Virus record (IMG/VR): IMGVR_UViG_3300010883_000018
Length of the DNA stretch: 64,000 nt
Reading direction: 5' to 3' (one strand)
Origin: an uncultured virus (IMG/VR IMGVR_UViG_3300010883_000018)
Taxonomy: Duplodnaviria > Heunggongvirae > Uroviricota > Caudoviricetes
The notes under the pieces are model-generated. The model saw nothing but the letters and a program-made list of their open reading frames with translations, was not told where the DNA came from and did no database searches. This document shows, piece after piece, positions 3,285 to 60,368 of this stretch. The position numbers and the translations under genes were made by a program. Each line of letters begins with the position of its first letter. The first letter of the stretch is position 1.

Positions 3285-3861
3285 ACAATTCCACAAAGAT
3301 TCCCGTCGCAAGGACGGTGTGTTCATTTGGTGTAAACGTTGCAGTAGTACAGCTAAATGGAAACGGTGCACCAAATGTAAAAAAGAAAAGAATTCACACG
3401 GATTTAGTGCTGGGCAGTTGCGGTGTAAAGAGTGTCAATTTGCAGCAGGTGTTTGGTTCTGTTGTAGTTGTAAGAAAATCAAACCGTTGGAGAAATTCGG
3501 CAAAAGTACGATTAGAACACGAGGATTCAATATTCGATGCAAAGCCTGCTGCCGCGACGACCAACAAAAAAATAGGCACGCGATTTCTGAGTACAAGCGG
3601 GAACGGAACTTTGGTATGTCTCGCGGAACATACGCCAGCATGTTTGCATCACAGGGTGGCGTTTGTGCAATATGTAAACAACCATCAAGCCAGGTTAGAC
3701 AGGGTAAACTCGTTGCATTACATGTCGACCATGACCACGCTACAAGCCAAGTACGGGGCTTACTGTGTGTTGACTGCAATCTTGGTATCGGCAGGCTGAA
3801 AAATAATCCTGAATTGATGGAACAGGCGGCAGAATATGTCAGACGACACTTATCGCAGTAA
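3229..3861 (+). CDS. Endonuclease VII-type (His-Me finger) homing endonuclease with Zn-finger repeats
   Basis: Repeated CxxC units, then QGGVCAIC...LHVDHDHATSQVRGLLCVDCNLGIG. Confidence 0.9.
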   Translation: MPDLVQKQCSKCHQNLPIEQFHKDSRRKDGVFIWCKRCSSTAKWKRCTKCKKEKNSHGFSAGQLRCKECQFAAGVWFCCSCKKIKPLEKFGKSTIRTRGFNIRCKACCRDDQQKNRHAISEYKRERNFGMSRGTYASMFASQGGVCAICKQPSSQVRQGKLVALHVDHDHATSQVRGLLCVDCNLGIGRLKNNPELMEQAAEYVRRHLSQ

Positions 3862-5005: not shown

Positions 5006-5343
5006 TGCAGATGACGCGGCAGGTTATTATCGACATGATTGGTGATGCGGGGTTCTATCAAACCTGCCCGTATTTTTTGCACATGCGGGATTTAGGCCTT
5101 CGCTGTTACAATGAATACATGCAGGAAATGACCAGTGCGTGCGAGGGATGTACTCAGGGTAAAGTACTGGCACCGGCCATAGGTGCATTTGTAGCCCAAC
5201 TGATGTTGCTACGAGTCGAGCAGCCTGCGGCCCTGGAACAGATCAAAGATTACATTGGTACACGACGCCCCAAACGACCCCAGTCACTTACGATGTTTCA
5301 CCGCAGCAGTAAGACTAACAGGATAGAACAGTTCAAGTTCTAA
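5005..5343 (+). CDS. Hypothetical protein
   Basis: ATG overlaps the upstream stop; weak similarity to 5881-6204 (I..M..D..F.Q..P). Confidence 0.6.
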   Translation: MQMTRQVIIDMIGDAGFYQTCPYFLHMRDLGLRCYNEYMQEMTSACEGCTQGKVLAPAIGAFVAQLMLLRVEQPAALEQIKDYIGTRRPKRPQSLTMFHRSSKTNRIEQFKF

Positions 5344-6513: not shown

Positions 6514-6765
6514 GTTTGGCTAAAGTCGACACAGAAACGCGGCACATTAATATGAACATGTGTTAGCGTTGCACACGGGCTCGGGTTTGACTCATACTCA
6601 TTCCCGGGCCCTACTTATGGAGGCCGGATGGTTCGCTTTGTGCGCCATTGCTGGCCATGCCTAGAGCGTCGTAGCTCAGGCCTCCACTTGGGGTTTCCTG
6701 TAAGGGGTAACCCATAGACGTGTAATGCGTCGGATCCTTGTTGTCGAAAGGTGACAAGGATTCTT

Positions 6766-6882
6766 TAGCCGGCGGGCTATAAACGTATTCGCGTACTGGC
6801 CACGTGTAGTGGCCAACTGAGCCCGGTGTTGCAGCACCGGTCTCTTTTATTTCTGCAACTCGCTGCAACATGGAGATTTGTT
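6766..6882 (+). promoter_or_regulatory. Repeated multi-hairpin leader, copy 1
   Basis: tagcc-GGCG-ggcta hairpin; ggccac/gtggcc hairpin; gagcccggtg-TTGCAG-caccggtctc plus T-tract; ctgcaac x2; GGAG RBS. Confidence 0.9.
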
Positions 6883-7326
6883 ATGACTACGTTTTTGGGA
6901 GCTATGAGTCGCATGGGTGCGTGGTTTTTGTATGTCGTCACGCTGCCGCTGTGCGGCATGCTGTGGGTAGCTCGCGAGGTCGGTGACCGCTACCTGGTCA
7001 CCGTCTACAACGCACAGCTGCGGTTCGCCGCGGCGTCGCAGGGAGACGAGCACCCACGGCAGTGGGACCAGATGTCCTCTGGAAGCAGTCAGCCAGATTA
7101 CAGCCTCAAGGTCGCCGTGACCTTGAAGCAGCCAGTGGAGGGCACGCGTGCCCTCCGCGACGAGGTGCTCCAACAGTCGCGCCTGTTGGAGGTCCTCGTA
7201 AGGGATCTCCGTGACGACGCGTCGGTGGCCCGGCGACTCGCCGAGGACGTCGAAGAGGCAGACGAGGCAGCCGCGGCGGAAGAGGCAGACGAGGCAGAGG
7301 AGCGGCGGGCGCAGGCGAGCTTCTAG
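6883..7326 (+). CDS. Hypothetical membrane-anchored protein with acidic tail
   Basis: ATG follows the leader RBS; hydrophobic N-terminal segment. Confidence 0.7.
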   Translation: MTTFLGAMSRMGAWFLYVVTLPLCGMLWVAREVGDRYLVTVYNAQLRFAAASQGDEHPRQWDQMSSGSSQPDYSLKVAVTLKQPVEGTRALRDEVLQQSRLLEVLVRDLRDDASVARRLAEDVEEADEAAAAEEADEAEERRAQASF

Positions 7327-31136: not shown

Positions 31137-31725
31137 GATATCCGTCATCAGCGATGACGGCAAGTTTCAACTAGGCGCTAAGGTCAAAGCCAAATCCCGC
31201 GTGGAAGCCGCCGCCAAACTGCGCAAAGCAATGGAGGCGGAGTATCAAAACGGGCTCGTCGGTGAGGGCCCGTTAAGTCCGGACATCACGGAGTTCACCG
31301 TATCAGTGGATCCAATAGCCGTCACTGCCAACAGTGTCATTCGCCTGCACGACATTCCCGAGGACGGTTCCGCGATGGCGCCATGCGTCGAGACACACGA
31401 TCCCGATCGCGCGGCGCCTACGGTCATTGTCATCGGTTGCCCGCCGCGGAAAGCGGAGTGGCTGATGCAGCATACGGATAACGAGGCTGACTGGATTTTC
31501 CTCAGCAGTGCTGGCGATCCACCGGACTCCTTGCCGCCTAACGATTTTGTAGTGGAGATCCACTACCACACAGAGACGGCTGAGGAGATACAAGACTTCT
31601 ACACGGAGTGCGGGCGACCTTCCGACAGGAATATCATTGTCTGGAGCCGCAAGATCAGTGTTTCGCTGGCGCGCAAGATTTCCGCACGCATCACCCACCA
31701 TCATCGAGAACACGACCGATCATGA
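31114..31725 (+). CDS. Hypothetical protein
   Basis: AGGA RBS; ATGA overlap with the next gene. Confidence 0.65.
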   Translation: MSTLQIHEISVISDDGKFQLGAKVKAKSRVEAAAKLRKAMEAEYQNGLVGEGPLSPDITEFTVSVDPIAVTANSVIRLHDIPEDGSAMAPCVETHDPDRAAPTVIVIGCPPRKAEWLMQHTDNEADWIFLSSAGDPPDSLPPNDFVVEIHYHTETAEEIQDFYTECGRPSDRNIIVWSRKISVSLARKISARITHHHREHDRS

Positions 31726-33461
31726 GCAAAACGAAAACGCGGAAATTTCGTCAGGATCCCAACCTGCTCAAGCAGGTCATCATGTCGCAGGCCGGCACGC
31801 TTTGGAAGGCTGTGCTGGAGGGCGTCATGAACGCGGTGGATGCCGGTGCCAGTCGCTTGGAGATTATGGCATCGCAAACAGATATTCATCTGGTGGACAA
31901 CGGGCGAGGTTTCCGCACCAACGAGGAAATCGAGGAGTATTTCGAAGTCTTCGGCAAACCACATACGGCTGATGAGGGTAAGACGTATGGCCGATTTCGG
32001 ATGGGCCGCGGTCAGTTATTTGCCTACGGGCACAACCACTGGCGGAGCGGTAAGTTCTCCATGGACGTGAATGTACACGCGACCAAATTCTGGGATGAGT
32101 ACGGGCAATTGCAGTACGATCTGCAGGATACCCTAGAGAATGTCGACGGGTGCAGGATCAATGTGCACCTGAGTCGACCGTTGGATCGGGGCGATTTGGC
32201 ACAGTTTGAGGAAGACCTCAAGCTCAACGCCAAGTTCGTACCCATCGAGGTCTTCCTCAATGGTACGCGTATCGATCACTCCAGCAGCTCCATCAAATGG
32301 GACGCAGAGCTGGAAGAGGCTGACATCAAGTACCGGCAACGCAGTGAACTGGTGGTCTACAACCAGGGCGTTCGCGTGACAAGCTACGCCAATCATCACT
32401 ACGGCGTTGGCGGTGATGTGGTTAGTAAGGTGCCGTTAAAGGTGAACTTCGCCCGCAACGAGATTATGAGTGACTGCCCTGTCTGGCAAAAACTGCAGCG
32501 ACTAATTCGCCGTAAGGGCGCAGAAGGTCGCGAGGTTCGGGAGCAGACGCGTGGAATGACCGAGGATGATCGTAAAGCCACCGCTCTGCAATTGTTACGC
32601 GGGGAGCTGCCCTCAAACGAAAGCTATATAGCTAAAGTGTTTACGGACATCGCCTGGCAACACAAATCCTTAAACAGCATCTTGCAGAAAGGTTACGGCG
32701 GCCGGATTACTGTAGGTCCAAAAATGTACGATGAGTTAGCTAAACGGATACACGCCGAAAAATTAGCTTTCGTACTATCGCCGCAAACCTTGCAGCGGTT
32801 TGGCGTGGATACTGTGGAGGAGCTGGTAGCGATATGTACATGGACTGTTCGCAACTCCCGCCATACTTACGACTGGAAAGAGCAGCCCCTGCAAGCGGCT
32901 ATCGTTTTGGATTACGACGAACTGGCTGCCGGCTTCAGTCAAGAATTCACGTTGGTCGATAAGAAGAAGTGGACCGTGCGTGAGTCTGCCGTCATGGATG
33001 CACTCAATCACAGTGCGCAGTGGCTGCAGTGGGGTGCACCAGAAGAATTACAAGCTCGCCGCGATCGTGTGATCACGCTGGGCTGCTCGGAAGTAACTAA
33101 ACATTGGACCGATGGGAAGACCTATGTAGCACTAGACCGCAAAATGATTTCGGGAGGAGCTCTGGACTTAGACACGTTTTTCCGATGGTGTTGTATGGTC
33201 GTCCACGAGTTGTGTCACGTTACACCAAGTAACTGCGAACACGAACACGACGTGGATTTCTTCCACTACTATCACAATTGGACAATGGGATCTCGCTTTG
33301 GCATTTTTGTGCAAACCGTTTTCATGCGACTGCCAACGTCCTACCAAAAAGAGAATAAGCGAATGAGTCGCCTGGGTCTAAAACGTTTAGATCGGGCGGA
33401 GCGTGTCGCTGCGGAAAACCAAAAAATAAATAAAGAGACAACCGAAGAAACTCAAGAGTGA
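31722..33461 (+). CDS. GHKL (Hsp90/MORC-like) ATPase with C-terminal HExxH zincin-like motif
   Basis: EGVMNAVDA, DNGRG, GRFRMG, and HELCH...H near the C-terminus. Confidence 0.85.
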   Translation: MSKTKTRKFRQDPNLLKQVIMSQAGTLWKAVLEGVMNAVDAGASRLEIMASQTDIHLVDNGRGFRTNEEIEEYFEVFGKPHTADEGKTYGRFRMGRGQLFAYGHNHWRSGKFSMDVNVHATKFWDEYGQLQYDLQDTLENVDGCRINVHLSRPLDRGDLAQFEEDLKLNAKFVPIEVFLNGTRIDHSSSSIKWDAELEEADIKYRQRSELVVYNQGVRVTSYANHHYGVGGDVVSKVPLKVNFARNEIMSDCPVWQKLQRLIRRKGAEGREVREQTRGMTEDDRKATALQLLRGELPSNESYIAKVFTDIAWQHKSLNSILQKGYGGRITVGPKMYDELAKRIHAEKLAFVLSPQTLQRFGVDTVEELVAICTWTVRNSRHTYDWKEQPLQAAIVLDYDELAAGFSQEFTLVDKKKWTVRESAVMDALNHSAQWLQWGAPEELQARRDRVITLGCSEVTKHWTDGKTYVALDRKMISGGALDLDTFFRWCCMVVHELCHVTPSNCEHEHDVDFFHYYHNWTMGSRFGIFVQTVFMRLPTSYQKENKRMSRLGLKRLDRAERVAAENQKINKETTEETQE

Positions 33462-33471
33462 GAAAAAGATT

Positions 33472-34458
33472 ATGTCAACAGTAACAGCCAAAACAAGCAC
33501 AGGCATCGTTGGCGCGCATCCGGTCATCATTAAATCGGCTTTGTACGGAACAAAGTACCGCGACTGGACACTGGGCGGACGCCTGGAAGTGACGATTCAG
33601 TTCCTGAATCCGTTGTTGGGCTCGCAGCCCGACCACGACATCAAGCAAAAGCAGAACGAGTTGGAGGAGAACCGCGCCTTGAAGGCCGGTCACGTCGACA
33701 ACTACACCGAGGAGGAGGGCCGTGCGTTGGCCGCCGCCGAGCTGATCAGTCTGGGTTCGATCGGAAAGGGGACCACGGGGTTCAACCAGGACGCAGATGG
33801 AAATGCGATCCTGTTGGAATACATACCACGAGGGTTCCTGAAGGCGGCATTCGACGCGATGGGTCAGGCCGGTATGGGAAGCTGGGGATTCCGCACCCAC
33901 TGCATGGAGCACGTGTTTGTGCATCCGGTGGATTGGGACACGGTGGACGGGACGCACCATGCAGCCGTCATGCGGCGTCGCGGTATCCCGTTGTTCCGCG
34001 TAGCCGGCATGCGAGAGAACGCGGACTGCTCCCCAGCGGGCGTCAGTGAACTCTCGGAGATCAAGGATACGGGCGTCAACTTGGCGAAGATGCACCTCGA
34101 GTCGTTCGATGTGGCGGCGTTGGCCAGCGATAACGACTTGTTGGTTCGGCCGGTCATGGGCGAGACTAAGGGCGTCAAGCACGTGGCGATCTCGGCCAGT
34201 CAGATGATTGAAGCGGGCGCTGTGTGTGCGTTCGAGGTTGTGGTCACGCCTAACGGCTTCGGGATCAACTTGGAAACGATCGTGCAAGCATTGGCCTACG
34301 GCGAGCATAAGGGCTTGGGTCAGTGGCGAACCGCGGGCTACGGTGCGTTCCAGGTCGTCGGTCTCCGAGTGGTTCAGGACAACCTGAGCAAGTACAACAC
34401 TCGCGACAAGAAGGCGAAAGCAGCCGCCGATAAGGCGAAAGGTACGAACGGCAAGTAA
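33472..34458 (+). CDS. Stand-alone Cas7/Csf2-like RAMP protein
   Basis: RLEVTIQFLNPLLGSQP first RRM strand; ILLEYIPRGFLKAA; IEAGAVCAFEV; Gly-rich loop LAYGEHKGLGQWRTAGYGAFQV. Confidence 0.8.
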   Translation: MSTVTAKTSTGIVGAHPVIIKSALYGTKYRDWTLGGRLEVTIQFLNPLLGSQPDHDIKQKQNELEENRALKAGHVDNYTEEEGRALAAAELISLGSIGKGTTGFNQDADGNAILLEYIPRGFLKAAFDAMGQAGMGSWGFRTHCMEHVFVHPVDWDTVDGTHHAAVMRRRGIPLFRVAGMRENADCSPAGVSELSEIKDTGVNLAKMHLESFDVAALASDNDLLVRPVMGETKGVKHVAISASQMIEAGAVCAFEVVVTPNGFGINLETIVQALAYGEHKGLGQWRTAGYGAFQVVGLRVVQDNLSKYNTRDKKAKAAADKAKGTNGK

Positions 34459-34477: not shown

Positions 34478-34516
34478 AAAGTGGGGTGCGGAAGGATCCG
34501 CGCCTCACTTTTTTTT
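34478..34516 (+). terminator. Intrinsic terminator after the RAMP gene
   Basis: aaagtggggtgcgga/tccgcgcctcacttt stem followed by a T-run. Confidence 0.8.
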
Positions 34517-34530
34517 GTGGGTGCACATAA

Positions 34531-34842
34531 ATGTACAAGTACATCGTTGAATACCATGACATGCCCTTCGCACACTCCCAACCGAGAATACTCATAGTGG
34601 AGGCCAAGTCACGTGTGGCGGCTTTTGTCGTGGCGTTTGTCGCTTTAACTGAACGCGGATTTTGTATCGATATCGACATGCCAGGTGTTGACTATCATGC
34701 GTACTTCTTACCTGCAGAAGTAAACGAACTAGAGCAGCAATATGTGATACCGCCTCGACGGTATGGTCAAACGCGTATTACTAACGTGGAAGTTTTTCAC
34801 ACCGGCATGAAAGAATTGCCCGGGAAGGTACTGCACGGCTAA
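34531..34842 (+). CDS. Hypothetical protein
   Basis: ORF in + strand gene run. Confidence 0.55.
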   Translation: MYKYIVEYHDMPFAHSQPRILIVEAKSRVAAFVVAFVALTERGFCIDIDMPGVDYHAYFLPAEVNELEQQYVIPPRRYGQTRITNVEVFHTGMKELPGKVLHG

Positions 34843-34861
34843 CCCTTAGGGAGACACGTTA

Positions 34862-35242
34862 ATGCGCAAATGGACTAAACCAGACACTGCAAGCATGTCG
34901 CTACGCGAAGTCTTAGAGTATCGCCGGCTGCGGACGCTGTTTACCCAGCAGTATGCTGAAAACTTGCTTGCTTTCAACCGAGTCACGGACTTGAAGGCAA
35001 GTTGTGATTGTTGCGGGGATCACCCAACTAAGTACTGGTCCGATACGGAATATAGGAATGTCGATGTGCCACTGGATCTCCTGCGGTGGGCCAGCTACTC
35101 GCTGTGCCGGGACTGTTTCCAGGCCTATTGGTGTAACACACCACAGGCAAACTTAAATACGGGCTGCGGTACCCCGCACAGCGCTATACCCGGCAGCCAG
35201 CAGAAGTACGAAGGTGGCAATTTCCACGGTGGAGAATGGTAA
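34862..35242 (+). CDS. Hypothetical Zn-finger protein
   Basis: CDCC...CRDC; GGGAG RBS. Confidence 0.6.
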   Translation: MRKWTKPDTASMSLREVLEYRRLRTLFTQQYAENLLAFNRVTDLKASCDCCGDHPTKYWSDTEYRNVDVPLDLLRWASYSLCRDCFQAYWCNTPQANLNTGCGTPHSAIPGSQQKYEGGNFHGGEW

Positions 35243-35296
35243 ATAGGGGGTGTTCGACATCTGAAAATTAAACGGTGTGACAAGCCAAAACACCGT

Positions 35297-35710
35297 TTAG
35301 TTTTCTACCTTTTCGCCTAACTTCTCGTTCACGCATTTCGCAAACCTACGCGATGCGATTAGCATCTGCTGCCGCAAGTCGTCAACATGATCGAGCATCG
35401 ACAGCCGTTGCTCCGCAGTTGCTGCCCACATGGGCGTAGCCTCCTCGCAAACTTCCTCGTGGTGGCGTTTGAAGGTAACTTGCCACTCCTGGCCATAGCC
35501 TTTCTGGGCATAAACTTTAGCCCAGGCAATATAGTGCTGGAACGGACTACCATACAAATCGTCTGGCGTAATGTCCAGGTAAGCGCTAACTGGGCAATTC
35601 AACTCGCGTAGCTCTTCATTAACGGACTGCCACTTTTCATTCAGAGCAGTGAAAGCATCCTCGAGTAGCGTTTGTGTCTCTGCAACAGAGACGGGGGATT
35701 TGGTGGCCAT
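35297..35710 (-). CDS. Hypothetical protein flanked by 14-bp inverted repeats
   Basis: AAAGGAGG RBS on the minus strand; IRs at 35273-35286 and 35749-35762. Confidence 0.75.
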   Translation of the reverse strand: MATKSPVSVAETQTLLEDAFTALNEKWQSVNEELRELNCPVSAYLDITPDDLYGSPFQHYIAWAKVYAQKGYGQEWQVTFKRHHEEVCEEATPMWAATAEQRLSMLDHVDDLRQQMLIASRRFAKCVNEKLGEKVEN

Positions 35711-35807
35711 ATCAAGGCCCTCCTTTCCTAGTCACGGAAAATAAAAACGGCTTGTCACACCGCGCCCGTCACTCTAGTTCAGGAGATATACAATTTCAAT
35801 AGAACAA

Positions 35808-36143
35808 TTGCAGGAACAGCTCAAACTTTGGATGAAGCGTAAGGATCTCTGGGGTGGGGCCAAATTCTGTGAGCAGCACACCTGGGAAGTGAACTTCGCA
35901 GAGCACGTCGGTCGCGGTGCTGCTATTACCTTGGCGATTGATGCATCGCCTATGTACGGATTGCTTAACCATCCAGATGCGTGGGACGGTACGACGCGGG
36001 AGGCGGTTGAGCAGTTTGACGATCTCGTTGAGCGTTGCGGCTTCTACTACGAGTTCGGGTACGCCTGGTCCCTGCATTTCTACCGACTAGAGCCCAAGCT
36101 CGAGATAGTTAGTCACGTCGGAGCCACTGTAACGAAAGCTTAG
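35808..36143 (+). CDS. Hypothetical protein directly upstream of pentamer array 1
   Basis: AGGAG upstream; start uncertain. Confidence 0.6.
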   Translation: MQEQLKLWMKRKDLWGGAKFCEQHTWEVNFAEHVGRGAAITLAIDASPMYGLLNHPDAWDGTTREAVEQFDDLVERCGFYYEFGYAWSLHFYRLEPKLEIVSHVGATVTKA

Positions 36144-36697
36144 TAATGTGGTGGTGATGTCATGTCGCGTATTGTTGCGTGGCGGTTGGGTGTGGTTTTG
36201 CTGAGTGTTGTTGAGGTCTTGTACTGTCTGGTGACGTCTAGTTACGGTGCTGCTGTGTTTAGTTAAGTCTCGTAGCGGTGCTGTGTTGTTCTGTGAAGTA
36301 TTGTGTCGGTACGGTTTTGTGCCGTAGGGTGCCGTACCGTGCTGGTGGGGTTATGTGTTGTGCGGTCCTGTGCTGTGGTGGTCACGCCCTGTTTTGTCGA
36401 GTGCTGTGGTGGTCAAGTATCGTGAGGTGTTATGGGGTATAGTGCCGGCGGTGTAATGTGCTCTGGTGTACTGCTCTGTTGCGTAATGGTGCTGCTGTGT
36501 TTAGTTAAGTTTCGTAGCGGTGATGTGATGTCACGTTGAGTGAAGTGCCGTGTTGGTACGGTGGAGTGCCGTACGGTTAAGTACCGTTTTGGTAATGTCT
36601 TGGTCGTGACGTATTGTGCTGCCTTGTGGTGGTCCCGTGGAGTAGCGTGATGCCTGGTCGAGGTTGCGCGCTGTTTAGTCGTGTTCTGTGGGGTAAC
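36143..36697 (+). repeat. GT-NNN pentamer array 1 (about 16 units of 6-8 pentamers, each unit opened by an extra G)
   Basis: Parses as G-GTgat-GTcat-GTcgc-GTatt-GTtgc-GTggc / G-GTtgg-GTgtg-GTttt-GCtga-GTgtt-GTtga and so on. Confidence 0.9.
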
Positions 36698-36800
36698 TTA
36701 TTGCCTCAAAAATCGTCGTCGTGGGGGATGGAAAATCGGATCACAGCGATCGGTTGACAAAAGGGTCGCTGGCTAGTATGCTCATCCCATGAGCATAGTA

Positions 36801-36876
36801 AAAGGCTAAAGTGACCATCTGTTTTTGTAAGTCGTTAGTGTGACTTGACTTAAGTACCATGGTCACTTTAGCCTTT
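36801..36876. repeat. Perfect 18-bp inverted repeat with 40-nt spacer between the two arrays
   Basis: aaaggctaaagtgaccat / atggtcactttagccttt. Confidence 0.9.
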
Positions 36877-37068
36877 AACTTTACTTTACAGTAAAGTGCC
36901 AAGGGAGTGCCCGCGCCTCCTGTCGGGCGGGGCACCTTCTCATTGTTGTACCAACAAACAAAACAGGATTACCCTCCGACCCACCATGTTGTGGCGCGCG
37001 GTAGCCTAGTGAGGTGCAACCCTCTTTTTGACGACCCCCACGTGTATGGATATCCATACGACCGATTC

Positions 37069-38160
37069 GTGATGGTTTAGTAATGTCTCGTGCTGGTACG
37101 GTTGCGTGGCGTAGCGTCCCGTAGCGTCTCGTGTTGGTCGCGTGTTGTCTGGTCGCATGCCGTTTTGTGACGTGGCGGTCGGGTGGCGTTTTGTCGTGTG
37201 TGGTGCCGGTGGTGTCATGTTCTGTCCAGTATCGTTGGGTTTGGTAGCGTGACGTCTAGGTGGCGCGAGGTGATGTTGTGTTCCGTAGTGTGGCGGTAGC
37301 GTGCTGAGCTGTGCGGTAGGGTTGCGGTCCAGTTTGGTTCCGTACTGCCCTGTTTCGTTTCGGTCGCGTCTCGTAGCGTTTAGTGTTGTCTCGTGTTGGT
37401 GTAGTGGAGTTCGGTTGCGTCTTGTTGCGTTGCGGTCAGGTTCTGTGAGGTGCTGTTGTGTTTCGTGGGGGTAAGGTCCTGTTTTGGTCTTGTGGCTCGC
37501 GGTGGGGTTCCGTAACGTCCCGGTGCCGTCTCGGTATCGTGCTGTCGCGTGCTGTTGTGTCATGGTGTTGTGGCGTGCCGGTCCTGTTTTAGTGCCGCAT
37601 TGTCGTGTGATGTGCTGGTAAGGTGCCGTCCTGTGTTGTGCCGTTCCGGCGACGTGCTGGCTTGTTCTGTCCCGTAGCGTACCGGTGGGGTGGCGTCCCG
37701 TTCTGTTTTGTAAGGTGACGTGTCGGTGCGGTGTGGTCTTGTTCTGTGACGTTCCGTGTCGGTCAAGTAATGTTCAGTTGAGTTGTGTCCCGGTGGCGTG
37801 ACGTCCCGTTCCGTAGTGGTCTTGTAGCGCACTGTTGGGTCTAGTCAGGTGGCGGTCAGGTGCTGTTCCGCAGTGTTTCGTTTCGTGGGGGTAAGGTGTC
37901 GTAATGCGGCGTATCGTGTCGTACCGGTGTTGTGGAGTGTGGTTCCGTATGGTTTCGTGACGGTTTTGCGGCGTAGCGTCCGGTAGCGTCTCGGTACTGT
38001 GGTGTGGTGTTTTGCGGCGGTGAGGTGGCGTAGTGTGACGTGCCGCAGCGTCTGGGTGTCGTAGTGTTCTGGTGACGTCCTGGTACTGTCCGGTGGCGTA
38101 TTGCACTGTTTAGGTCATGTTGTGTTCGGTGTTGTTTTGTTCTGTTTAGGTTTCGTGTTT
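37069..38160 (+). repeat. GT-NNN pentamer array 2 (roughly 30 units), ending in a T-run
   Basis: Example unit G-GTacg-GTtgc-GTggc-GTagc-GTccc-GTagc-GTctc-GTgtt; same grammar as array 1. Confidence 0.9.
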
Positions 38161-38217
38161 TTTACAGGTCGGTCAGGAGGGCCATGAGTTCAAATCCATT
38201 TTTCACTTTAGAGAGGT

Positions 38218-38598
38218 ATGCTTATGACGGCTAAGAGTCAATTCAGGTTGGAGTACCGCGGCAAGCCAACGCGATCCGCATTGGTGCTCGAGTACGCTAA
38301 AAAGCATCCGCTGGCCTTACCGACGGAGATTGCCAAAGAGCTTCGCAAGCGGCAGGTTTCCGTTGGCTTCGCAGCCAAGGTGCTCAAGCATTTCAATATC
38401 AAGCCTACGACCAAGAAGCCGGCGACTCCCAAACCGCGAGCTAAGCGGGCGCCGGTGGTGACGCAAGTCACGCAGTTGGCGGATATCAATCAGCTGCAAG
38501 CAGCCCGGGCGTTCATCGACAATCACTGTGATGGTGATACCGATGCAGCAGTTGCGTCTGTGATGCTGTTGTCGCAGTTGCGAACAGTGGCAAAATAG
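38218..38598 (+). CDS. Small basic putative DNA-binding protein
   Basis: GAGG RBS; HTH-like N-terminus and Lys/Pro-rich linker. Confidence 0.6.
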   Translation: MLMTAKSQFRLEYRGKPTRSALVLEYAKKHPLALPTEIAKELRKRQVSVGFAAKVLKHFNIKPTTKKPATPKPRAKRAPVVTQVTQLADINQLQAARAFIDNHCDGDTDAAVASVMLLSQLRTVAK

Positions 38599-38672
38599 CG
38601 GAATCCAGACGCTAGGCTGTTGTCCCGTGGTCTAGGGCAGACTGGGTAACGGGACCCTTTCAATTTCACTAT

Positions 38673-39173
38673 TTGGAGAGCATTATGTGGACAGCTAAAA
38701 TTTACAATCCTTCGTTTGTGCACGCACCGCTGCATTGTCTTGTTTGTGGCAAGCCGATCATTGAGCCGGACGCCGATGACAGCACCAACGGCAGGATATG
38801 CGACAGCGCGCAGTGGTGTGAGCACGTGGTGGCTTACGTGTGCGATCGGCAGGTCTCAGACGACTACGACTTCAACGCTGCGACTGCGGCCGGTCGCAAT
38901 TTTCAGCAACTGTACGAGAAGTTGTTGAATCAGCAACTTGATGCAGACGAGTTCAATTTGGAGCACGCGATCCGCGATATCCAGGATGCGGATGTGCTCG
39001 ACCGTACTGACGATTCCATGTTGTTGCGGTTGTCCGTGACGTACACCTTGCAAACCTGCACTTCTTTTGATGTCACGGATCAAATCATTTTGCGGTGGCC
39101 TCGCTTTCAAGGGTCGCCCGTAACTGCGTCGGTGGAGGAGTCCAGCAATGCGGATTGTTCGTCAGGTACTTGA
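38673..39173 (+). CDS. Hypothetical protein (CxxC...CEH)
   Basis: ORF; probable start at the MWTAK codon after GGAG. Confidence 0.6.
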   Translation: MESIMWTAKIYNPSFVHAPLHCLVCGKPIIEPDADDSTNGRICDSAQWCEHVVAYVCDRQVSDDYDFNAATAAGRNFQQLYEKLLNQQLDADEFNLEHAIRDIQDADVLDRTDDSMLLRLSVTYTLQTCTSFDVTDQIILRWPRFQGSPVTASVEESSNADCSSGT

Positions 39174-39746
39174 TGCCGCTGATTTCGAGCACCTCGTCCG
39201 CGGCGGTACGCTGCAGATTGATGTGCGGAATCTGCGGGCTGCTGCCGTGGAGCTTTGTCTGGGTTTGTCGGAGATCCAAGACATTATCAACGCCGCCAAT
39301 GATGCGACCGTTTCGCGGCGCGGAGTGGTAATGCTGCTGGAATAAGCCGATACGGACGCCGTACGGCTCGCTGTCGCTCGTTGCAGGTTTAATGTGACTC
39401 CAGAACGCCCCAGAAGCGGTGGATCGCTTACAGAGCCATTTCACAGCCTCTGGGGGTAGCCTACAAGGACCTAGAAATGATTCGACCACCCCCACCCCGA
39501 TTGTGATGACACATCAACCAAGGCGGCGGCCAGTCAGGTCGCGACGACCGGTAAGGAATCCAGCGAAGGTCTTGTTCCTGCTCGTTATCTGGATTCTCCC
39601 GCCGTCGCTGTTTGTCGCCGCCATATCATCACCCGAAGTTATGCGGCGAATTGCCTGCCTGATATGCGGGCCCGAACACGTGATTAAGCACGACACAAGG
39701 AGCACCCGCTGACCGGGCCTCGCTTCACTCAACGCAAGGAACGAAA

Positions 39747-56058: not shown

Positions 56059-57120
56059 ATGAGCGATTTCGAACCACTCAATACTTTTTTGCACATACGG
56101 TTACAGCAGCTGTTCGGTAAAGTACTGACGGCTAATTCGGGCATAGCAGCCCAGTGTGATACGAGCGGACCGCGACCGAAACTAGTGAAGAATCGCGGAG
56201 AGATGTATCGCGTGCGCTGTCCCTTCTGTCAGGACACGCGACTGCGGTTACACATCCATCATCGCTGGGGCACTGGCTTCCCTGAGTTGGGTGTCGACGA
56301 TCGGTTTTGGTTTGCTTGGCGGTGTTGGAACGAGGAGTGTCAGGACGACCCTGCCAATCGGAAATGGCTGAAGGATAGGGTCTACCAGGATTTGGGTCGC
56401 GCTAGGCGATCCAACATTACGGTGCGACCGGGTAACGTCGAGCCTAAAGAACTATTGCGGCGGGATTTTCCCGGGATCAGTTATCCGCTTGCTGCGTTGT
56501 CTGATCAGCACCCCAGTCGGGCGTATCTGCGAGATCGCGGCTGGAATGCACAGCACCTTTGCGAGTTGTACAACTTGCATTTCTGCGAGCACGCTGATGG
56601 CGAACTGCGGTTAGCGACTAACCGTATTGTCGTGCCTGTCTACCAGCACGGTGAGATGGTCGGCTGGCAAGCACGGTACGTTGGCGACATCGATTTTAAG
56701 GCAACACGGATACCGAAGTATTTCACTTGCCCAGGCATGTACACTTCGGCGTGCCTTTACGGTTACGACCAAGCGACGACGTCTCCGGTGGCCTTCCTCT
56801 GCGAGGGTGTGACGGACGTGTGGGCAGTCGGCCCCGGTGCTATGGCGTTATTCGGCAAGCGGTCGCTGTTGGATCCTAAGCAGGCCATGCTGCTAGCACA
56901 CCACTGGAAGTATCTAGTGATACTGCTGGATCCGGATGCTGCGGTGGAAGCCGAGGCACTTTGTCTCAGTCTGCGGGCAGCGATTCCGCACATCATTAAA
57001 GTTCAATTACCAAAGGGAACGGATCCTGCGGCGATCAATACGGACGTACTGTGGGATCTCATTTATGGATCTGCAGCGGCTCAGGGCATTGATCTCGCGG
57101 ACGTATGCGAAGCAGTATGA
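56059..57120 (+). CDS. DnaG-like DNA primase
   Basis: CPFC Zn ribbon, RIVVPV...VGWQAR, PKY, EGVTD, LDPDA. Confidence 0.88.
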   Translation: MSDFEPLNTFLHIRLQQLFGKVLTANSGIAAQCDTSGPRPKLVKNRGEMYRVRCPFCQDTRLRLHIHHRWGTGFPELGVDDRFWFAWRCWNEECQDDPANRKWLKDRVYQDLGRARRSNITVRPGNVEPKELLRRDFPGISYPLAALSDQHPSRAYLRDRGWNAQHLCELYNLHFCEHADGELRLATNRIVVPVYQHGEMVGWQARYVGDIDFKATRIPKYFTCPGMYTSACLYGYDQATTSPVAFLCEGVTDVWAVGPGAMALFGKRSLLDPKQAMLLAHHWKYLVILLDPDAAVEAEALCLSLRAAIPHIIKVQLPKGTDPAAINTDVLWDLIYGSAAAQGIDLADVCEAV

Positions 57121-60100
57121 GCATCACAACTTTAGACACTGACGAGCTGCGGGCGGTTTTCGAACGCAATATGGAGATGCCGGCGGCTAGGCAATTTCAG
57201 ATGTTCCCATTTGCCTCTGCCGGTATGCCAGAGGCGGGTGCGGACTTTTCCGATCACGCTAAGTATCTTGTCGGTACTCGCGAGACGGCGGAGGAACAGG
57301 CAGAAGCCGTTAGGTGGGAACTAAACAAACTGTATTTGCGAGCGCTATATGATCCGAGCACGTTTCAGATACCGGTTGCCGTTAAGGGCCGGCAGGAACA
57401 GGCTCGGATCATCCCAGGTCATTACTGGGGTCGCCAAGCCTGCGGGCCGGCACCCTGTGAGGATACTGGTAAGCCTCGCGTGATGGTTGTGGGTAAGATG
57501 CCCAGTCACGAGGACCTCCGCGAGAGTCGCAACTTTATTGGCCCGAGTGGTCAGCAGTTGGGCCGTACGTTGGAGCATATCAATCCCGCAGGTTATTCCG
57601 AGCTGCGTGACTGGTACATCTGTAATCTCGTACGTTGGATCCAACTGGACCCGCAGGGCGGTGCGTTACCTCAGCGGTGGATTAAAGATTGTCTGCCGTT
57701 GCTGCACCAAGAGTTGCGTATTGTACGACCGGAGTTCATTCTTTGTCTTGGCGCCGAAGCCACTAAGGCTGTCTGCGGTAAGGCATGTAGTGTGTCCAAT
57801 ATGGTCGGGCGTTATGTAGAGGTGGAGTTCCCATGTAATGCACCTGATGAGCCGCCGGCTACGCATACGGCCAAAGTCATGGCTGCAGTTCACCCCGCCG
57901 CGGTATTACGTACGACGGATCACTACCCGCAATTTGAAGCTACGCTACGGAATTTTCTGGAGCTGGTGAATGGCAATGATTTCAGCACACCCAGTAGTGC
58001 GCTTGAGATCAAGTATGTCTACAAGGTGCGAGATTTGGCTGCGATTGTGGATGAGGTAATTGCGCAGCCTGGGTTGAAGAAGATTGCAGTGGATGCTGAG
58101 TGGCATGGCAATCATCCCGGTGAACCTGGGTCGTATTTACGGTCAGTGCAATTCAGTTACGCAGATGACTCGGCGGTGGTTGTCGTGCTCACCCATCAGG
58201 GTGGCGCGCCAGCCTTTATGCCTAGTGAGGCGTCGGCTATGCGGGAGCTGTCGCGACTGTTAGATCGCGATGATGTGCAGATTATTGGTCACTTCTTCGC
58301 GGCCGATCTACCTTGGTTGGAGCACCATGGTGTGCGGATTGCGCATCGTTTTGTGGTACCAGCGGATCTGGAGTTGGTGCGGACGGGCGAGTATGCCGGC
58401 GGGTTTGATACGTCGCTGGCTGCCCATGCACACAATGAGACGAGTGAATTCAAATTAGAGGTACTGGGCGTTCGTCACTGCGGTTCCGATCGCTGGGACG
58501 TGGAATTACAGACGTGGCTTAAAGCGTTTTGTCATGAGAATTCTTTGAAGCTAGAGGAGGTGGATGGTTACGGTGAGTGTCCTGCCGAAGTGCTACTACC
58601 TTACGGTGGCAAGGATGCAGCATATACACGCAAACTTCGGGACGTGTACGCAGCAGGCAGTGACAGCACACGGCCTGGCTTGTTGCACTGTGATCGTGTT
58701 GGCAATGATTGCTGGCTGCCGTTTCAGGTCTCCATGATGGCGTTTCCCGCTTTCCTCGAGATGCATATGACGGGCGTGAAAGTTGATCGCGAACGCATCG
58801 ATTTTATGACCGACACTTTTCAAGCGGCGCGGGAGCGGGTGTTGGGTCAATTGCAAGCTGCAATTCGTTGGCCGACATTTAACCCCCGTAGCACGCAGCA
58901 GTGCGTGGAGTTCCTGTTTGGCGAGGCGTACAGCACAAAACGGGATGAGAACGGTAATCGCGTCTCTGTACGACCGGAGGGCGCCATGACGTTGGATCTC
59001 ACTCCGGTGAAAACTACGGGCGCTCGGGGCAAAGCCTGGGCCCGCGTACAGGCTGATGGGGATAGTGATAAGTTCAACCCCAGTACCGATAAGGAAGTCT
59101 GCGGTATTCTGGGGCTAACCAATGATTTGGCGTTACGGCTACGTGACGTACGTTTGATCGATCAAACCCTCAAATCAGTCTTTCGTGCGCCATTACGTGA
59201 CGGCGGCGCGCTGGTTATCAGTGAGGGTCATCGTGTCTACAAGGGTGGCATCGCATCGTTCATCGGACATGACGATCGGATCCATAGCTTCTTCTCGCAG
59301 CATAAGGAAACGGGGCGGGCAAGCTCTAAACGCCCACCGCTCCAGAATCTGTCCAAGCGACGCGAGATGGATTACAAGCGGATTTTGGCGGATGCCTACC
59401 GCTATAAAATTCGCTCCTTCATGACGAGTAATACGGATCCCGCGTACGGCGAGCCTACCGTACTGGTTGAGGCTGATTACAAGGGTGCCGAGTTGTTTGG
59501 TACAGCCACGCAGTCTCGTGACGAAGCGATGATTGATCATTGCCTGCGGGCAAACCTGCCGGAGGATCATCCGAATTTTTACGACATCCATTCCAATGTG
59601 GCCGTCAATGCTTTTCGTCTGGATTGTGAACCAACCAAATCCGGGCTCGCAAGCATCGACAAAGCAGATTTGCGGGTGGGTGCCAAGAACGTGATCTTCG
59701 GCGGATCGTATGGACGGTCGGCCGAAGCGATCGCACGCCAAGGCCAAGAGGAAGGCGTGCCTATGACTGAGCAGGATGCGGCCTCTATCCTGCAAGCGAT
59801 TTTCGATATGTACCCTGGAATTCCTCAACTGCAAGAGGCGTTGCGTATGCGGGCTAAGAGCCCTTCCTGGGTCTGCAATTGTTTTGGCCGATATCGTCGC
59901 GTGATTCCTACGGGAGATCGTGGCGGCATGGGTGAGTTAGAGCGGCAGTTCCTCAATTACCCGTTCCAATCGATGGTGGCTGATGCTGTCAGCATTGCGC
60001 TGTATTACCTGCACAACCATCCCGACAGGGAGCGATTGGGTTATCGGATCGTACTGCAAGTACACGATGCCGTGATCCTTGAGGTACCGACCCGTAGCTT

Positions 60101-60368
60101 GGATGACGTATGCCGTGTTGTGCTGCCTGAGTGCATGGAACAACGCGTCAAATTTAGGGCGTGCGATCTAGATGGTAGCGCTTACCCTGACAGTCCGGAA
60201 TACAACTTCTCTATTGATAGCGAGGTGATGCTGCGGTGGGGTGAGCATATCCCGTGGTCAATCTGTGATGAATTAGGCATCAACCGCGAATACGGTTTTG
60301 CGGATGCATCGCCAGAACCGACACCAGATCCAGTCACTGTAGCCAATACCTTCGGTGACCGAGGATAA
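57117..60368 (+). CDS. Family A DNA polymerase with N-terminal uracil-DNA glycosylase (family 4-like) domain
   Basis: VMVVGKMP...FIGPSG...LCLGAEA...HPAAVLR; exonuclease VDAEW; TGR.SS..P.LQN; ADYKGAE; AKNVIFGGSYG; QVHD. Confidence 0.92.
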   Translation: MSITTLDTDELRAVFERNMEMPAARQFQMFPFASAGMPEAGADFSDHAKYLVGTRETAEEQAEAVRWELNKLYLRALYDPSTFQIPVAVKGRQEQARIIPGHYWGRQACGPAPCEDTGKPRVMVVGKMPSHEDLRESRNFIGPSGQQLGRTLEHINPAGYSELRDWYICNLVRWIQLDPQGGALPQRWIKDCLPLLHQELRIVRPEFILCLGAEATKAVCGKACSVSNMVGRYVEVEFPCNAPDEPPATHTAKVMAAVHPAAVLRTTDHYPQFEATLRNFLELVNGNDFSTPSSALEIKYVYKVRDLAAIVDEVIAQPGLKKIAVDAEWHGNHPGEPGSYLRSVQFSYADDSAVVVVLTHQGGAPAFMPSEASAMRELSRLLDRDDVQIIGHFFAADLPWLEHHGVRIAHRFVVPADLELVRTGEYAGGFDTSLAAHAHNETSEFKLEVLGVRHCGSDRWDVELQTWLKAFCHENSLKLEEVDGYGECPAEVLLPYGGKDAAYTRKLRDVYAAGSDSTRPGLLHCDRVGNDCWLPFQVSMMAFPAFLEMHMTGVKVDRERIDFMTDTFQAARERVLGQLQAAIRWPTFNPRSTQQCVEFLFGEAYSTKRDENGNRVSVRPEGAMTLDLTPVKTTGARGKAWARVQADGDSDKFNPSTDKEVCGILGLTNDLALRLRDVRLIDQTLKSVFRAPLRDGGALVISEGHRVYKGGIASFIGHDDRIHSFFSQHKETGRASSKRPPLQNLSKRREMDYKRILADAYRYKIRSFMTSNTDPAYGEPTVLVEADYKGAELFGTATQSRDEAMIDHCLRANLPEDHPNFYDIHSNVAVNAFRLDCEPTKSGLASIDKADLRVGAKNVIFGGSYGRSAEAIARQGQEEGVPMTEQDAASILQAIFDMYPGIPQLQEALRMRAKSPSWVCNCFGRYRRVIPTGDRGGMGELERQFLNYPFQSMVADAVSIALYYLHNHPDRERLGYRIVLQVHDAVILEVPTRSLDDVCRVVLPECMEQRVKFRACDLDGSAYPDSPEYNFSIDSEVMLRWGEHIPWSICDELGINREYGFADASPEPTPDPVTVANTFGDRG

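Follow-up and report, generated by a model that had tools for sequence, protein, structure and literature searches.

The window analysed here is a 64,000-nt stretch of DNA from an uncultured virus (IMG/VR record IMGVR_UViG_3300010883_000018). It encodes a terminase, a primase, a DnaB-like helicase and PolA, and the contigs related to it through the terminase are viral and 92-195 kb long; the vipr gene and the two arrays described below are carried by a phage. On the plus strand lie a gene for a GHKL-type ATPase, the gene vipr and two long arrays of five-base units (Table 1). The ATPase gene ends 10 nt before vipr, which is located approximately 1.7 kb upstream of array 1 and 2.6 kb upstream of array 2 on the same strand. 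The approximately 1.7 kb between vipr and the arrays contain four small ORFs without a known family and a terminator-like hairpin. The window has no tRNA or tmRNA genes, and neither Tandem Repeats Finder nor a repeat search found a CRISPR repeat-spacer array in it. Further, a scan of 40 ORFs detected no Cas family, and the window showed no gene for Cas5, Cas6 or a large subunit.

Table 1 Features of the vipr locus and its arrays in the window
Feature	Position	Strand	Description
GHKL-type ATPase gene (HATPase_c_3)	31608..33461	+	Pfam PF13589, E 1.5e-7
vipr	33472..34458	+	328-aa Cas7-like RAMP protein, G-loop GLGQWR (Q284 W285 R286)
Terminator-like hairpin and T-run	34478..34511	+	15-pair stem, 8 GC pairs, T-rich tail; consensus match only
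Array 1	36143..36698	+	~96 GY+NNN units with extra-G punctuation
Spacer between arrays	36700..37068	+	Strongly structured; promoter-like site and inverted repeat
Sigma-70-like promoter match	36754-36782	+	10/12 consensus positions
Inverted repeat, 27-nt arms	36792-36818 and 36859-36885		Within inter-array spacer
Array 2	37069..38157	+	~207 GY+NNN units, ~41 blocks delimited by extra G
T6 run	38158..38163	+	End of array 2
Minus-strand ORFs over array 2	37006-37563, 37560-37832, 37774-38106	-	Open frames

Neighbourhood of the arrays

Metagenomic contig pieces matched the stretch from 35700 to 38400 with 0 differences and 0 gaps; there were 23 of them, from four runs of marine or seawater origin belonging to four studies, and none covered the stretch in full. 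Searching positions 34500-39500 against 50,697 phage records by blastn gave no match. The RNA of the inter-array spacer is predicted to fold at -150.7 kcal/mol, compared with -109.0 ± 6.1 for shuffled sequences (z = -6.84; 0 of 100 shuffles folded as well), and the first 300 nt of array 2 fold slightly better than shuffles (z = -2.13). Structured RNA follows array 1 in the form of this spacer, and nothing comparable follows array 2. The first-pass annotation took array 2 to be transcribed separately. A sigma-70-like match and the structured spacer do separate the two arrays, and promoter-like matches in the region were not in excess (4, against 2.9 expected from shuffles), so that a transcript of its own for array 2 is at most a possibility. 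The T-run that the first-pass annotation placed at the end of array 2 is there, six bases long; it may mark the end of transcription, and a consensus scan listed no hairpin terminator at it. Around the arrays, Rfam returned a single chance miRNA match (E 0.35) at E≤1, with no hammerhead or other ribozyme between blocks, and nothing reached gathering scores across the window.

Judging from its position, the GHKL ATPase gene may be an accessory (vap-like) gene. Its relatives were not found by tblastn in any of 206 loci, a survey of the 42 ORFs adjoining vipr at 16 related loci did not show the HATPase domain, and a search of viral_contigs gave no close relative. A role as conserved partner of vipr is not supported, the pairing not being kept in relatives.

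Unit grammar and composition of the arrays

Array 2 is built of head-to-tail units, each consisting of a G and a pyrimidine followed by three variable bases. With both G-T and G-C accepted as anchors, it was parsed into 207 steps, comprising 166 of 5 nt, 37 of 6 nt, three of 10 nt and one of 4 nt, and the anchor was GT at 195 and GC at 12 of 207 positions. When only GT was accepted, the parse gave 146 steps of 5 nt, 34 of 6 nt and 13 of 10 nt, the 10-nt steps being the sites where GC or AT replaces GT. The invariance of the G is built into the parse; the pyrimidine was T in 192 of 203 units and C in the other 11. Runs of eight GTs at exact 5-nt spacing occurred five times in the 64-kb window, all between 37096 and 37721, and never in 100 shuffles. 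Over the arrays, each 300 nt contained 55-64 GT dinucleotides against 2-9 AC, and A accounted for 6-11% of bases. Spectral power reached its maximum (20.7) at a period of 5.17 nt, in keeping with a mean unit length of approximately 5.17-5.19 nt.

The triplets between the anchors are highly diverse. The number of distinct triplets is 51 in array 2 and 45 in array 1, with 37 common to both, and the two arrays together employ 59 of the 64 possible. As had been remarked earlier, the third variable base is seldom A in array 2 (14 of 203 units; 15 of 85 in array 1), and the junction GTTTCGTGGGGGTAAGGT recurs at 37460 and 37880. Both arrays begin at TTAGTAATGT. The first-pass annotation also described one grammar of GT-NNN units with extra-G punctuation for both arrays, and this holds: where a unit has a sixth base, that base is G in 33 of 34 units of array 2 and in all 16 of array 1.

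The extra G divides the arrays into blocks of preferred length. In array 2, blocks of 36 nt (12 occurrences) and 31 nt (6) were the common ones, and in array 1 those of 31 nt (7) and 36 nt (4). Blocks of six or seven units made up 29 of the 58 counted, a count from which the final ~95 nt of array 1 are missing, the unit parse having ended before them; shuffling the unit order gave 6.9 ± 2.5 such blocks (maximum 16), and none of 5,000 shuffles reached 29. A further 15 of the 58 were short, with two or three units. Altogether, the two arrays comprise approximately 300 units in approximately 60 blocks. No conserved sequence, 3' tail or pseudoknot was found after the blocks or after either array. 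We infer that the extra G splits the arrays into blocks of the form G-(YNNNG)6-7, i.e., 31 or 36 nt, each of which would be one short guide. The extra G would then give each neighbouring guide a terminal G of its own rather than a shared one.

A Vipr-family RAMP protein encoded upstream

The AF2 model of the vipr product (pLDDT 73.5, pTM 0.72) resembles the Cas7-like subunits of class 1 CRISPR systems. Foldseek returned 96 PDB matches at E≤0.001, headed by type VII Cas7 (8yhe_J, E 1.2e-7) and Csm3 (6xn3_F); among the matches listed, all were Cas7 or Csm chains. The family to which the protein belongs includes 1918 representatives at E≤1e-3, and the Pfam RAMPs model matched 3 of 67 members. The family profile (A2) matched the Vipr of Escherichia phage SUSP1 (36pp_D) weakly, over the C-terminal 54 residues only (E 0.008), in an alignment that sets QWR against D177-W178-R179. 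On the other hand, A2 was linked to the profile of the D-type family (A4) with an hhalign probability of 97.2%, and A4 matched 36pp_D at E 4.5e-13. According to this two-step profile chain (A2 to A4 to 36pp_D) and the predicted fold, the window's protein is assigned to the Vipr-family RAMPs. A single-protein search of viral_contigs found no close relatives of it; the locus search for relatives used alignment A1, A2 being too diverse.

Arrays beside vipr relatives

Similar arrays occur next to related genes. One locus (L028, on the same contig as L129) encodes a 217-aa Vipr homologue (BLASTP E 5e-16) that is followed at once by 74-81 GT+NNN units; of the 14 extra bases there, 13 are G. Of 80 loci fetched by the family G-loop motif, three had long GT arrays, all directly downstream and on the gene's strand, and most of the remaining ones carried GC+NNN arrays at that place. 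In 45 Q-type loci, one of them that of the window, the share of six-base steps was 15-34%, versus 0-9% in 15 D-type loci, and the slot before G-Y held G with a median frequency of 0.43 versus 0.74; the Q-type loci were fetched with a pattern containing GQWR, many come from one metagenome and are non-independent, and 43 of 104 sources were dropped from the comparison for lack of a G-loop match, for having <12 steps or as duplicates. Six-base "commas" characterise the Q-type branch as a whole.

Blocks of 26, 31 and 36 nt were also found in the arrays of relatives. In one of them (L144), GCAAAG accounted for 11 of 19 six-base units, and the third-base bias varied among related arrays. Furthermore, a phage related by its terminase (63% identity) has the canonical form of the system introduced below, so both forms occur in related phages.

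Probable identity of the arrays as a VIPR guide bank

VIPR, a CRISPR-related system for RNA-guided DNA silencing, was first described in 2026 preprints (10.64898/2026.04.26.720920, 10.64898/2026.04.26.720927). As presented in the portions of these preprints available to us, it combines one Vipr with vrRNAs made of pentanucleotide repeats, is classified into seven types, and includes arrays with the alternative repeats NNNGG, YNNNG and NNNNG as well as staggered arrays (10.64898/2026.04.26.720920). The Vipr protein they describe is a minimal RAMP that has one RRM, a G-loop and a thumb, and in SUSP1 one protomer binds each repeat, G1 being read by H17 and D177, G2 by R138 and W178, and Y3 by R179 (10.64898/2026.04.26.720927).

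Arrays 1 and 2 together very probably make up the vrRNA (guide-RNA) array of a VIPR system that the phage encodes. They are pentanucleotide tandem repeats with fixed and hypervariable positions on the strand of vipr. The "guide bank" proposed from the letters alone was therefore right in kind, given the VIPR repeat grammar, the position downstream of a Vipr-family RAMP gene on the same strand, and the relatives with an array right after the gene. Among the alternative repeats, the one present at this locus is YNNNG, with units of the form T-n1-n2-n3-G. G1 of the canonical GGY motif is variable here, the base before G-Y being G in 94 of 304 steps (six-base units included), and the G-loop residue that reads G1 in SUSP1, D177, is Gln (Q284). 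The canonical GGY/NN repeat with an Asp-read G1 is thus absent, which is compatible with membership, YNNNG being an admitted alternative repeat. Also absent are vrRNAs of 9-16 repeats with the invariable structured 3' tail of type II.

None of the 14 runs listed for the stretch is an RNA run. Transcription, strand and processing of the arrays are predicted from the SUSP1 system. By this analogy, the plus strand of the arrays would be transcribed, and each five-base unit would be bound by one protomer of the Vipr RAMP protein. The protomers would grip the fixed G and the pyrimidine and display the variable bases, and the resulting filament could pair discontinuously with the dsDNA of a competing phage or another mobile element, leading to silencing.

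Comparison with described systems

The closest likeness is to VIPR with YNNNG repeats and staggered arrays, as far as the available text describes them: a lone phage Vipr RAMP gene, pentanucleotides in which only a G and a pyrimidine are fixed, and long arrays of abutting guides without individual tails. In staggered VIPR, adjacent vrRNAs share one nucleotide, according to the legend of fig. S18 (10.64898/2026.04.26.720920), whereas an extra G separates the blocks in the window, so that no nucleotide need be shared. The window also differs in its size, with its many blocks at 1.7 kb from vipr, and in the GHKL ATPase gene upstream, the word "ATPase" being absent from the main text of 10.64898/2026.04.26.720920.

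With the type II VIPR of SUSP1 the locus shares a RAMP protein with a W-R pair in the G-loop (W285 R286 corresponding to W178 R179), five-base units on the gene's strand and carriage by a phage. SUSP1, in the accessible parts of the preprints, has GGY/NN repeats, with 9-16 units per vrRNA, each approximately 100 nt, and a conserved 3' pseudoknot tail (10.64898/2026.04.26.720920, 10.64898/2026.04.26.720927), in contrast to the GY/NNN units, the blocks of six or seven and Q284 in place of D177 observed here, where no tail was found.

The predicted fold is shared with class 1 CRISPR Cas7 (type VII) and Csm3 (III-A), with Foldseek E values of 1e-7 to 1e-5 and a Foldseek probability of 1.00. Like VIPR, class 1 CRISPR uses one RAMP subunit per fixed-length RNA segment with bases flipped regularly, as the available text puts it (10.64898/2026.04.26.720927). 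The period is 5 nt with two or three presented bases here and 6 nt with five paired bases there, and the window lacks a repeat-spacer array of ~25-40-nt repeats, Cas5, Cas6 and a large subunit.

VIPR has been published together with its alternative repeats and its staggered arrays, and the window does not change the kind. This marine phage contributes a comparatively large array to a newly described, CRISPR-related mode of DNA recognition by a discontinuous RNA code, in its less studied GY+NNN form. The near-unconstrained third base, the Gln at the G1-reading site of the G-loop and the branch-wide six-base commas make the code of this branch testable.

Two or three informative bases

From the third-position bias, the first-pass annotation had proposed a code in which target information resides in just two of the three variable bases. 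Per-position information content shows the bias to be weak: the entropies of the first, second and third variable base are 1.96, 1.95 and 1.75 bits. In favour of a two-base code, the third base corresponds to G1 of GGY in SUSP1, a slot that the protein grips and that does not pair in the structure as described in the available text (10.64898/2026.04.26.720927), and a later preprint writes motifs of this sort as NN joined to a degenerate trinucleotide. However, besides being weak, the bias is not the same across related arrays, and blocks of six or seven units would offer only 12-14 informative bases under that code.

We tentatively consider another possibility, which we hold to be rather unlikely as a whole, namely that each block is an independent mini-guide of six or seven units in which all three variable bases are read (18-21 informative bases) and the G and Y alone are flipped out, the extra G serving as the processing point. 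If three bases were read, the Q-type unit would be split 3+2, between the 2+3 of canonical VIPR and the 5+1 of class 1 CRISPR; if the extra G were the processing point, two transcripts would yield approximately 60 guides, none of them having to share a nucleotide with its neighbour.

Gapped targets were sought in the window and in 206-216 loci (~1.5 Mb) with the decoding rules n1n2+x, x+n2n3, n1n2n3, n1n2n3+x, n1n2n3+xx, n1n2+xx and n1n2, using 8-unit windows under six rules and, under five, 31 clean blocks with a length of 6-8 units. Under every rule, the best matches equalled those of shuffled controls. Seven runs of GGYNN units from a related phage (L214) were likewise compared with the window, and their best matches equalled those of shuffled controls.

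Alternative explanations

A TRAP-like RNA-binding ring, DNA helical phasing, primase or Chi clusters, and a DGR or retron template had been entertained and were dropped after the RAMP gene was recognised. The array might work as DNA or RNA without Vipr, for instance as a tract that binds protein in phase with the helix, as clustered primase-like or Chi-like sites, or as a decoy or sponge. Two units of the observed mean length (~10.4 bp) equal one turn of B-DNA, and the tract shows a strong GT bias and strand asymmetry; GT-richness is also a trait of primase and Chi sites. We regard this as highly improbable, since it leaves unexplained both the same grammar beside a RAMP gene in unrelated phages and the tracking of array features with the G-loop residue, and the published VIPR system explains the pentamer rhythm directly.

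Just as improbable, in our estimation, is a defunct VIPR array, a decaying relic parted from its gene. The arrays do lie beyond the terminator-like hairpin at 1.7 kb from vipr, short blocks are present (15 of 58), 13-15 anchors are broken, and no target emerged from ~1.5 Mb. Against decay, the vipr ORF is intact and retains the invariant and near-invariant residues of the family (in an alignment numbered on the window's sequence), the anchors are overwhelmingly GT and the punctuation is highly regular, and the sequence is identical in contigs from four runs of four studies.

That the minus strand codes for genuine T/R/H-rich repeat proteins, the 5-nt rhythm being a side effect, is the least credible reading, with hardly any chance of being correct: three open frames (185, 90 and 110 aa) do tile array 2, but T makes up 7.8% of that strand, so that a stop is expected once per ~50 codons, all three minus frames are alike open (3, 6 and 6 stops in ~363 codons each), power at the 3-nt period is 0.4 compared with 13.3 for the vipr gene, every six-base unit shifts the frame, no ORF of the three matched Pfam at E≤0.1, and the richness in T, R and H is the direct outcome of NNNAC read in three phases. 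These ORFs are a by-product of base composition, their lengths being those that the T-poor composition predicts. Coding minus-strand ORFs, which had been named at the outset as the finding that would speak against a guide bank, were thus not borne out by periodicity, Pfam or length.

Two further ways of reading the arrays were rejected. Taken as in-frame codons, the triplets do not avoid stops (7 of 231 in sense, 9 of 231 in antisense). After removal of the GY pairs, ribosome-binding-site-like text was not convincing either, with 11 SD-like 4-mers in sense against 6.3 ± 2.5 (54 of 1,000 shuffles reached this) and 17 in antisense against 15.9 expected. In the same GY-deleted text, ATG occurred 11 times in antisense against 7.2 expected, a count reached by 14 of 1,000 shuffles, uncorrected for four tests.

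Grammar and block structure of the two arrays

Two GT-rich, A-poor tracts were found on the plus strand (sequence read over 35700-37080 and 36800-38500), with GT 55-64, AC only 2-9 and A 6-11% in sliding 300-nt windows. They hold two arrays of units composed of G-Y and three variable bases (n1, n2, n3), so that each variable triplet is flanked 5' by GY and 3' by G. Parsing of array 2 from 37069 to ~38157 as a chain of GT anchors gave 146 steps of 5 nt, 34 of 6 and 13 of 10, the 10-nt steps being those at which the anchor had changed to GC or AT. When both G-T and G-C anchors were admitted, there were 166 steps of 5, 37 of 6, 3 of 10 and 1 of 4, with 195 GT and 12 GC anchors. The sixth base of the 6-nt units was G in 33/34 cases in array 2 and 16/16 in array 1. 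The chain parse thus confirmed the first-pass annotation, which had read a GT-NNN grammar with an extra G in both arrays. Its other readings held as well: an 18-nt junction sequence is present at both 37460 and 37880, A is rare as the third variable base (14/203 units of array 2), and the array ends in a T6. Eight GTs at exact 5-nt spacing occurred five times in the window, all within array 2, and not once in 100 shuffles. Tandem Repeats Finder did not report the arrays because their units differ.

The array DNA is genuine; 23 contig pieces from 4 marine/seawater metagenome runs (4 studies) match 35700-38400 with 0 differences, none covering the whole stretch, and no RNA run was among the runs found to contain it. 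The opening ten bases, TTAGTAATGT, are identical in the two arrays; the array of a related locus (L136) likewise has GTAAT as its first unit, and that of another (L063) starts TAATGT. This opening may represent a common leader or start signal.

The 6-nt units were not scattered, and direct-repeat spacings of 31 and 36 nt predominated. Blocks were defined by a cut after each 6-nt unit, and their lengths (see table) therefore correspond to G-(YNNNG)6 or G-(YNNNG)7. Six or seven units were present in 29 of 58 blocks, a set without the final ~95 nt of array 1, which the parse did not reach; shuffles of unit order gave 6.9 +/- 2.5 (maximum 16), and 29 was reached in 0/5000. Owing to the extra G, adjacent blocks need not share a terminal G, and each block may represent one short guide, separated from its neighbours at that base. 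Block sizes of 26, 31 and 36 nt are common to related arrays. In the GC+NNN array of L144, GCAAAG accounts for 11/19 six-base units and nearly every block ends so; this near-fixed last unit thus resembles a handle more than guide sequence. The last block units of the window, unlike those of L144, are variable.

Coordinates of features in the window and in related loci
Feature	Coordinates	Strand	Remarks
Array 1	36143-36698	+	block lengths 31 nt x7, 36 nt x4
Array 2	37069-38157	+	block lengths 31 nt x6, 36 nt x12
Array openings	36140-36149, 37076-37085	+	TTAGTAATGT
Inter-array spacer	36700-37075		~370 nt
Sigma-70-like site	36754-36782		10/12 match
T6	38158-38163	+	end of array 2
T-arm-like element	38190-38203		GAGTTCAAATCC
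GHKL ATPase gene	31608-33461	+	HATPase_c_3
vipr	33472-34458	+	328-aa product
Cys-rich ORF, window	34862-35242
Cys-rich ORF, L028	2359-2790	-
DNA polymerase, family A	57105-60368
L144 array	6624-7200		GC+NNN
L214 vipr and vrRNAs	3100-5153	- (of locus)	200-aa Vipr; same contig as L217
L055 mini-arrays	2990-4720		overlaps L056
L035 tracts	3000-3700
L050 tracts	3000-3600
L043 arrays	3100-3600		overlaps L044

Reading frames and RNA elements

A coding function of the arrays was ruled out by the lack of 3-nt periodicity (spectral power 0.4-0.6 vs 13.3 for the neighbouring gene, with a sharp peak at 5.17 nt), by composition, which explains the minus-strand frames, and by the absence of Pfam matches for three minus-strand ORFs at E<=0.1. 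The plus frames contain 14-16 stops each. The three minus frames together have 15 stops in ~1090 codons (expected one per ~50 codons) and are open because T makes up only 7.8% of that strand, while their richness in Thr, Arg and His results from NNNAC being read in three phases. Stops were not avoided in the triplet frame of the array units, nor was ribosome-binding-site-like text in excess in the variable bases.

The inter-array spacer is a chain of hairpins that includes a stem with 27-nt arms. Its fold reached -150.7 kcal/mol (z -6.84), 0/100 shuffles folded as well, and it matched no Rfam family; an array 1 cap, a terminator and a processing element are candidate roles. A sigma-70-like site lies inside it, promoter-like matches in the region being at chance level. 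No ribozyme or other Rfam family was detected in the window or around the arrays. Just 3' of array 2 is GAGTTCAAATCC, which resembles a tRNA T-arm and loop; ARAGORN called no tRNA in the window.

The effector gene and its relatives

When viral contigs were searched for GT at a 5-nt rhythm alone, 126 loci were recovered. The locus L028 has an array of the window's grammar (74 units, extra base G) directly 3' of a gene whose 217-aa product is homologous to the window Vipr (BLASTP E 5e-16). Pentamer arrays also lie immediately 3' of genes ending in a similar glycine-rich motif in L058 and L063.

The window Vipr had no match of its own in Pfam or PHROG. A profile search recovered 1918 cluster representatives at E<=1e-3, 511 of them at E<=1e-30, and 3/67 aligned family members touched Pfam RAMPs. 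Its AlphaFold model (pLDDT 73.5, pTM 0.72) gave 96 Foldseek matches at E<=0.001, including type VII Cas7 (8yhe_J, E 1.2e-7, target-normalised TM 0.52) and Csm3 of type III-A. The family profile (A2) matched PDB chains of Cas7 and Csm4 and, weakly, SUSP1 Vipr (36pp_D, E 0.008), and this weak match aligned the family G-l-G-Q-W-R with SUSP1 G-V-G-D-W-R. To bridge the window family to the solved SUSP1 protein, a second profile (A4) was built from D-type proteins (G-loop GDFR) of 12 loci including L214. It matched SUSP1 Vipr at E 4.5e-13 (residues 51-188 of 202), and A2 matched A4 with 97.2% probability (E 2.9e-11, 135 columns).

The GHKL ATPase gene, whose stop is 10 nt 5' of vipr, had no tblastn match in 206 loci and no close relative in viral contigs, and its domain was found in 0/42 neighbouring ORFs of 16 related loci; judged by these comparisons, it is apparently not a conserved neighbour of vipr. 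Small Cys-rich (zinc-ribbon-like) ORFs adjoin the arrays of the window and L028, with no mutual similarity (tblastn, E<=1e-3). At its N-terminus, the family A DNA polymerase encoded in the window has a domain of the uracil-DNA glycosylase superfamily (PF03167, E 1.8e-18).

Placement among VIPR systems

According to the available text of one preprint (10.64898/2026.04.26.720920), VIPR comprises a phage-encoded minimal RAMP (Vipr) and vrRNAs of 9-16 YNNGG repeats; in the canonical form the GGY bases are constant and base pairing with DNA is left to NN, every third target base being skipped. The same text describes seven types, the alternative repeats NNNGG, YNNNG and NNNNG, staggered arrays in which vrRNAs overlap, and others in which hammerhead ribozymes are interspersed. 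Structures, in the accessible part of a companion preprint, have one protomer per repeat and six subunits per turn without DNA but five with it; in SUSP1, H17 and D177 read G1, R138 and W178 read G2, and a pocket with R179 reads Y3 (10.64898/2026.04.26.720927). A further preprint, in the portion available, reports 21 clusters with non-canonical pentamers, some motifs being degenerate at one trinucleotide position (10.64898/2026.10.21.760802), and the available portion of another makes no mention of alternative repeats, staggered arrays or processing (10.64898/2026.10.15.759431). As far as these texts go, the VIPR system, alternative repeats and staggered arrays are already known.

In the frame of the first preprint (10.64898/2026.04.26.720920), the window unit is T-n1-n2-n3-G, that is YNNNG. 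The canonical first-G slot is variable here. Array 2 is a genuine VIPR guide array, well formed and of the G-punctuated GY+NNN type. Besides the block structure, our analysis established the grammar, the RAMP fold, the family links and a conserved gene-array association, which bear out in kind the guide bank proposed earlier. L214 belongs to a phage with a terminase 63% identical to the window's. Its Vipr (G-loop GLGDFR) is followed by several canonical GGYNN vrRNAs; the hairpin tail that terminates each vrRNA is conserved (GGTATTGCCCAGTAG...CTGCTGGGATTT). Given canonical units there and GY+NNN units in the window, two VIPR formats occur in related phages.

We then compared loci by the residue before W-R or F-R in the G-loop (Q284 in the window Vipr, D177 in SUSP1). 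Among 104 sources (the window, L127-L206, L217-L237, L058 and L063), 61 with a G-loop match and >=12 steps were kept as non-duplicates. The 15 D-type loci had G before G-Y at a median of 0.74 (0.52-1.00) and 0-9% 6-nt steps; the 45 Q-type loci, window included, had 0.43 (0.28-0.65) and 15-34%; the single S-type locus had 0.14 and none. With the caveats that Q-type loci were retrieved by a pattern containing GQWR, that many came from one metagenome and that the parser was crude, replacement of Asp by Gln at the G1-reading position accompanies loss of the fixed first G together with regular six-base "commas", and the punctuated format is a feature of the Q-type branch rather than of this phage alone.

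Decoding of the variable bases

By analogy with SUSP1, the plus strand of the arrays would be transcribed, one Vipr protomer would bind each unit, and the variable bases would be presented to dsDNA of a rival element, leading to silencing. The first-pass annotation had suggested that only two of the three variable bases carry target information, and we lean slightly towards such a two-base code. By homology, n3 occupies the slot of the sequestered G1 as far as the available structural account goes (10.64898/2026.04.26.720927), and such motifs are described as a degenerate trinucleotide plus NN in the accessible part of 10.64898/2026.10.21.760802. However, n3 is nearly as variable as its neighbours (per-position entropy in array 2 of 1.75 bits vs 1.95-1.96 for n1 and n2), its bias is not common to related arrays (pyrimidine ~77% in the window, 56% in L129, 45% in L136 and 34% in L144), and blocks of 6-7 units would hold just 12-14 informative bases. 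A three-base code seems to us rather unlikely. Target searches over ~1.5 Mb (the window and fetched loci) gave nothing beyond shuffled controls.

Other pentamer arrays

Further formats were seen in the fetched loci. L055 has ~10 mini-arrays of GGTNN units, each ending in GGTAGGGTAGGG and a T-run. AT-rich spacers containing TTTGCAATCATTTATA-like text lie between them, and a ParB-like gene is among them; 5' of the first is a short ORF whose N-terminus (AIVTIRGISPLLMG) is Vipr-like. The short TGTNN or GTNNT pentamer tracts of L035 and L050 form almost the same set in both loci, and a hairpin-like element (GGCTTATGCCGC..., GCAACTCATGCTGCC...) comes after each tract. They may represent vrRNAs with ribozymes or hairpins between them; the flank examined showed no vipr gene. 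L043 contains four GTCNN arrays with an identical ~34-nt spacer between them (GGAAAAACAGCCTCCTTGTCTGAGTGATAAACAC); the fixed part of their units is three bases long and differs from GGY.
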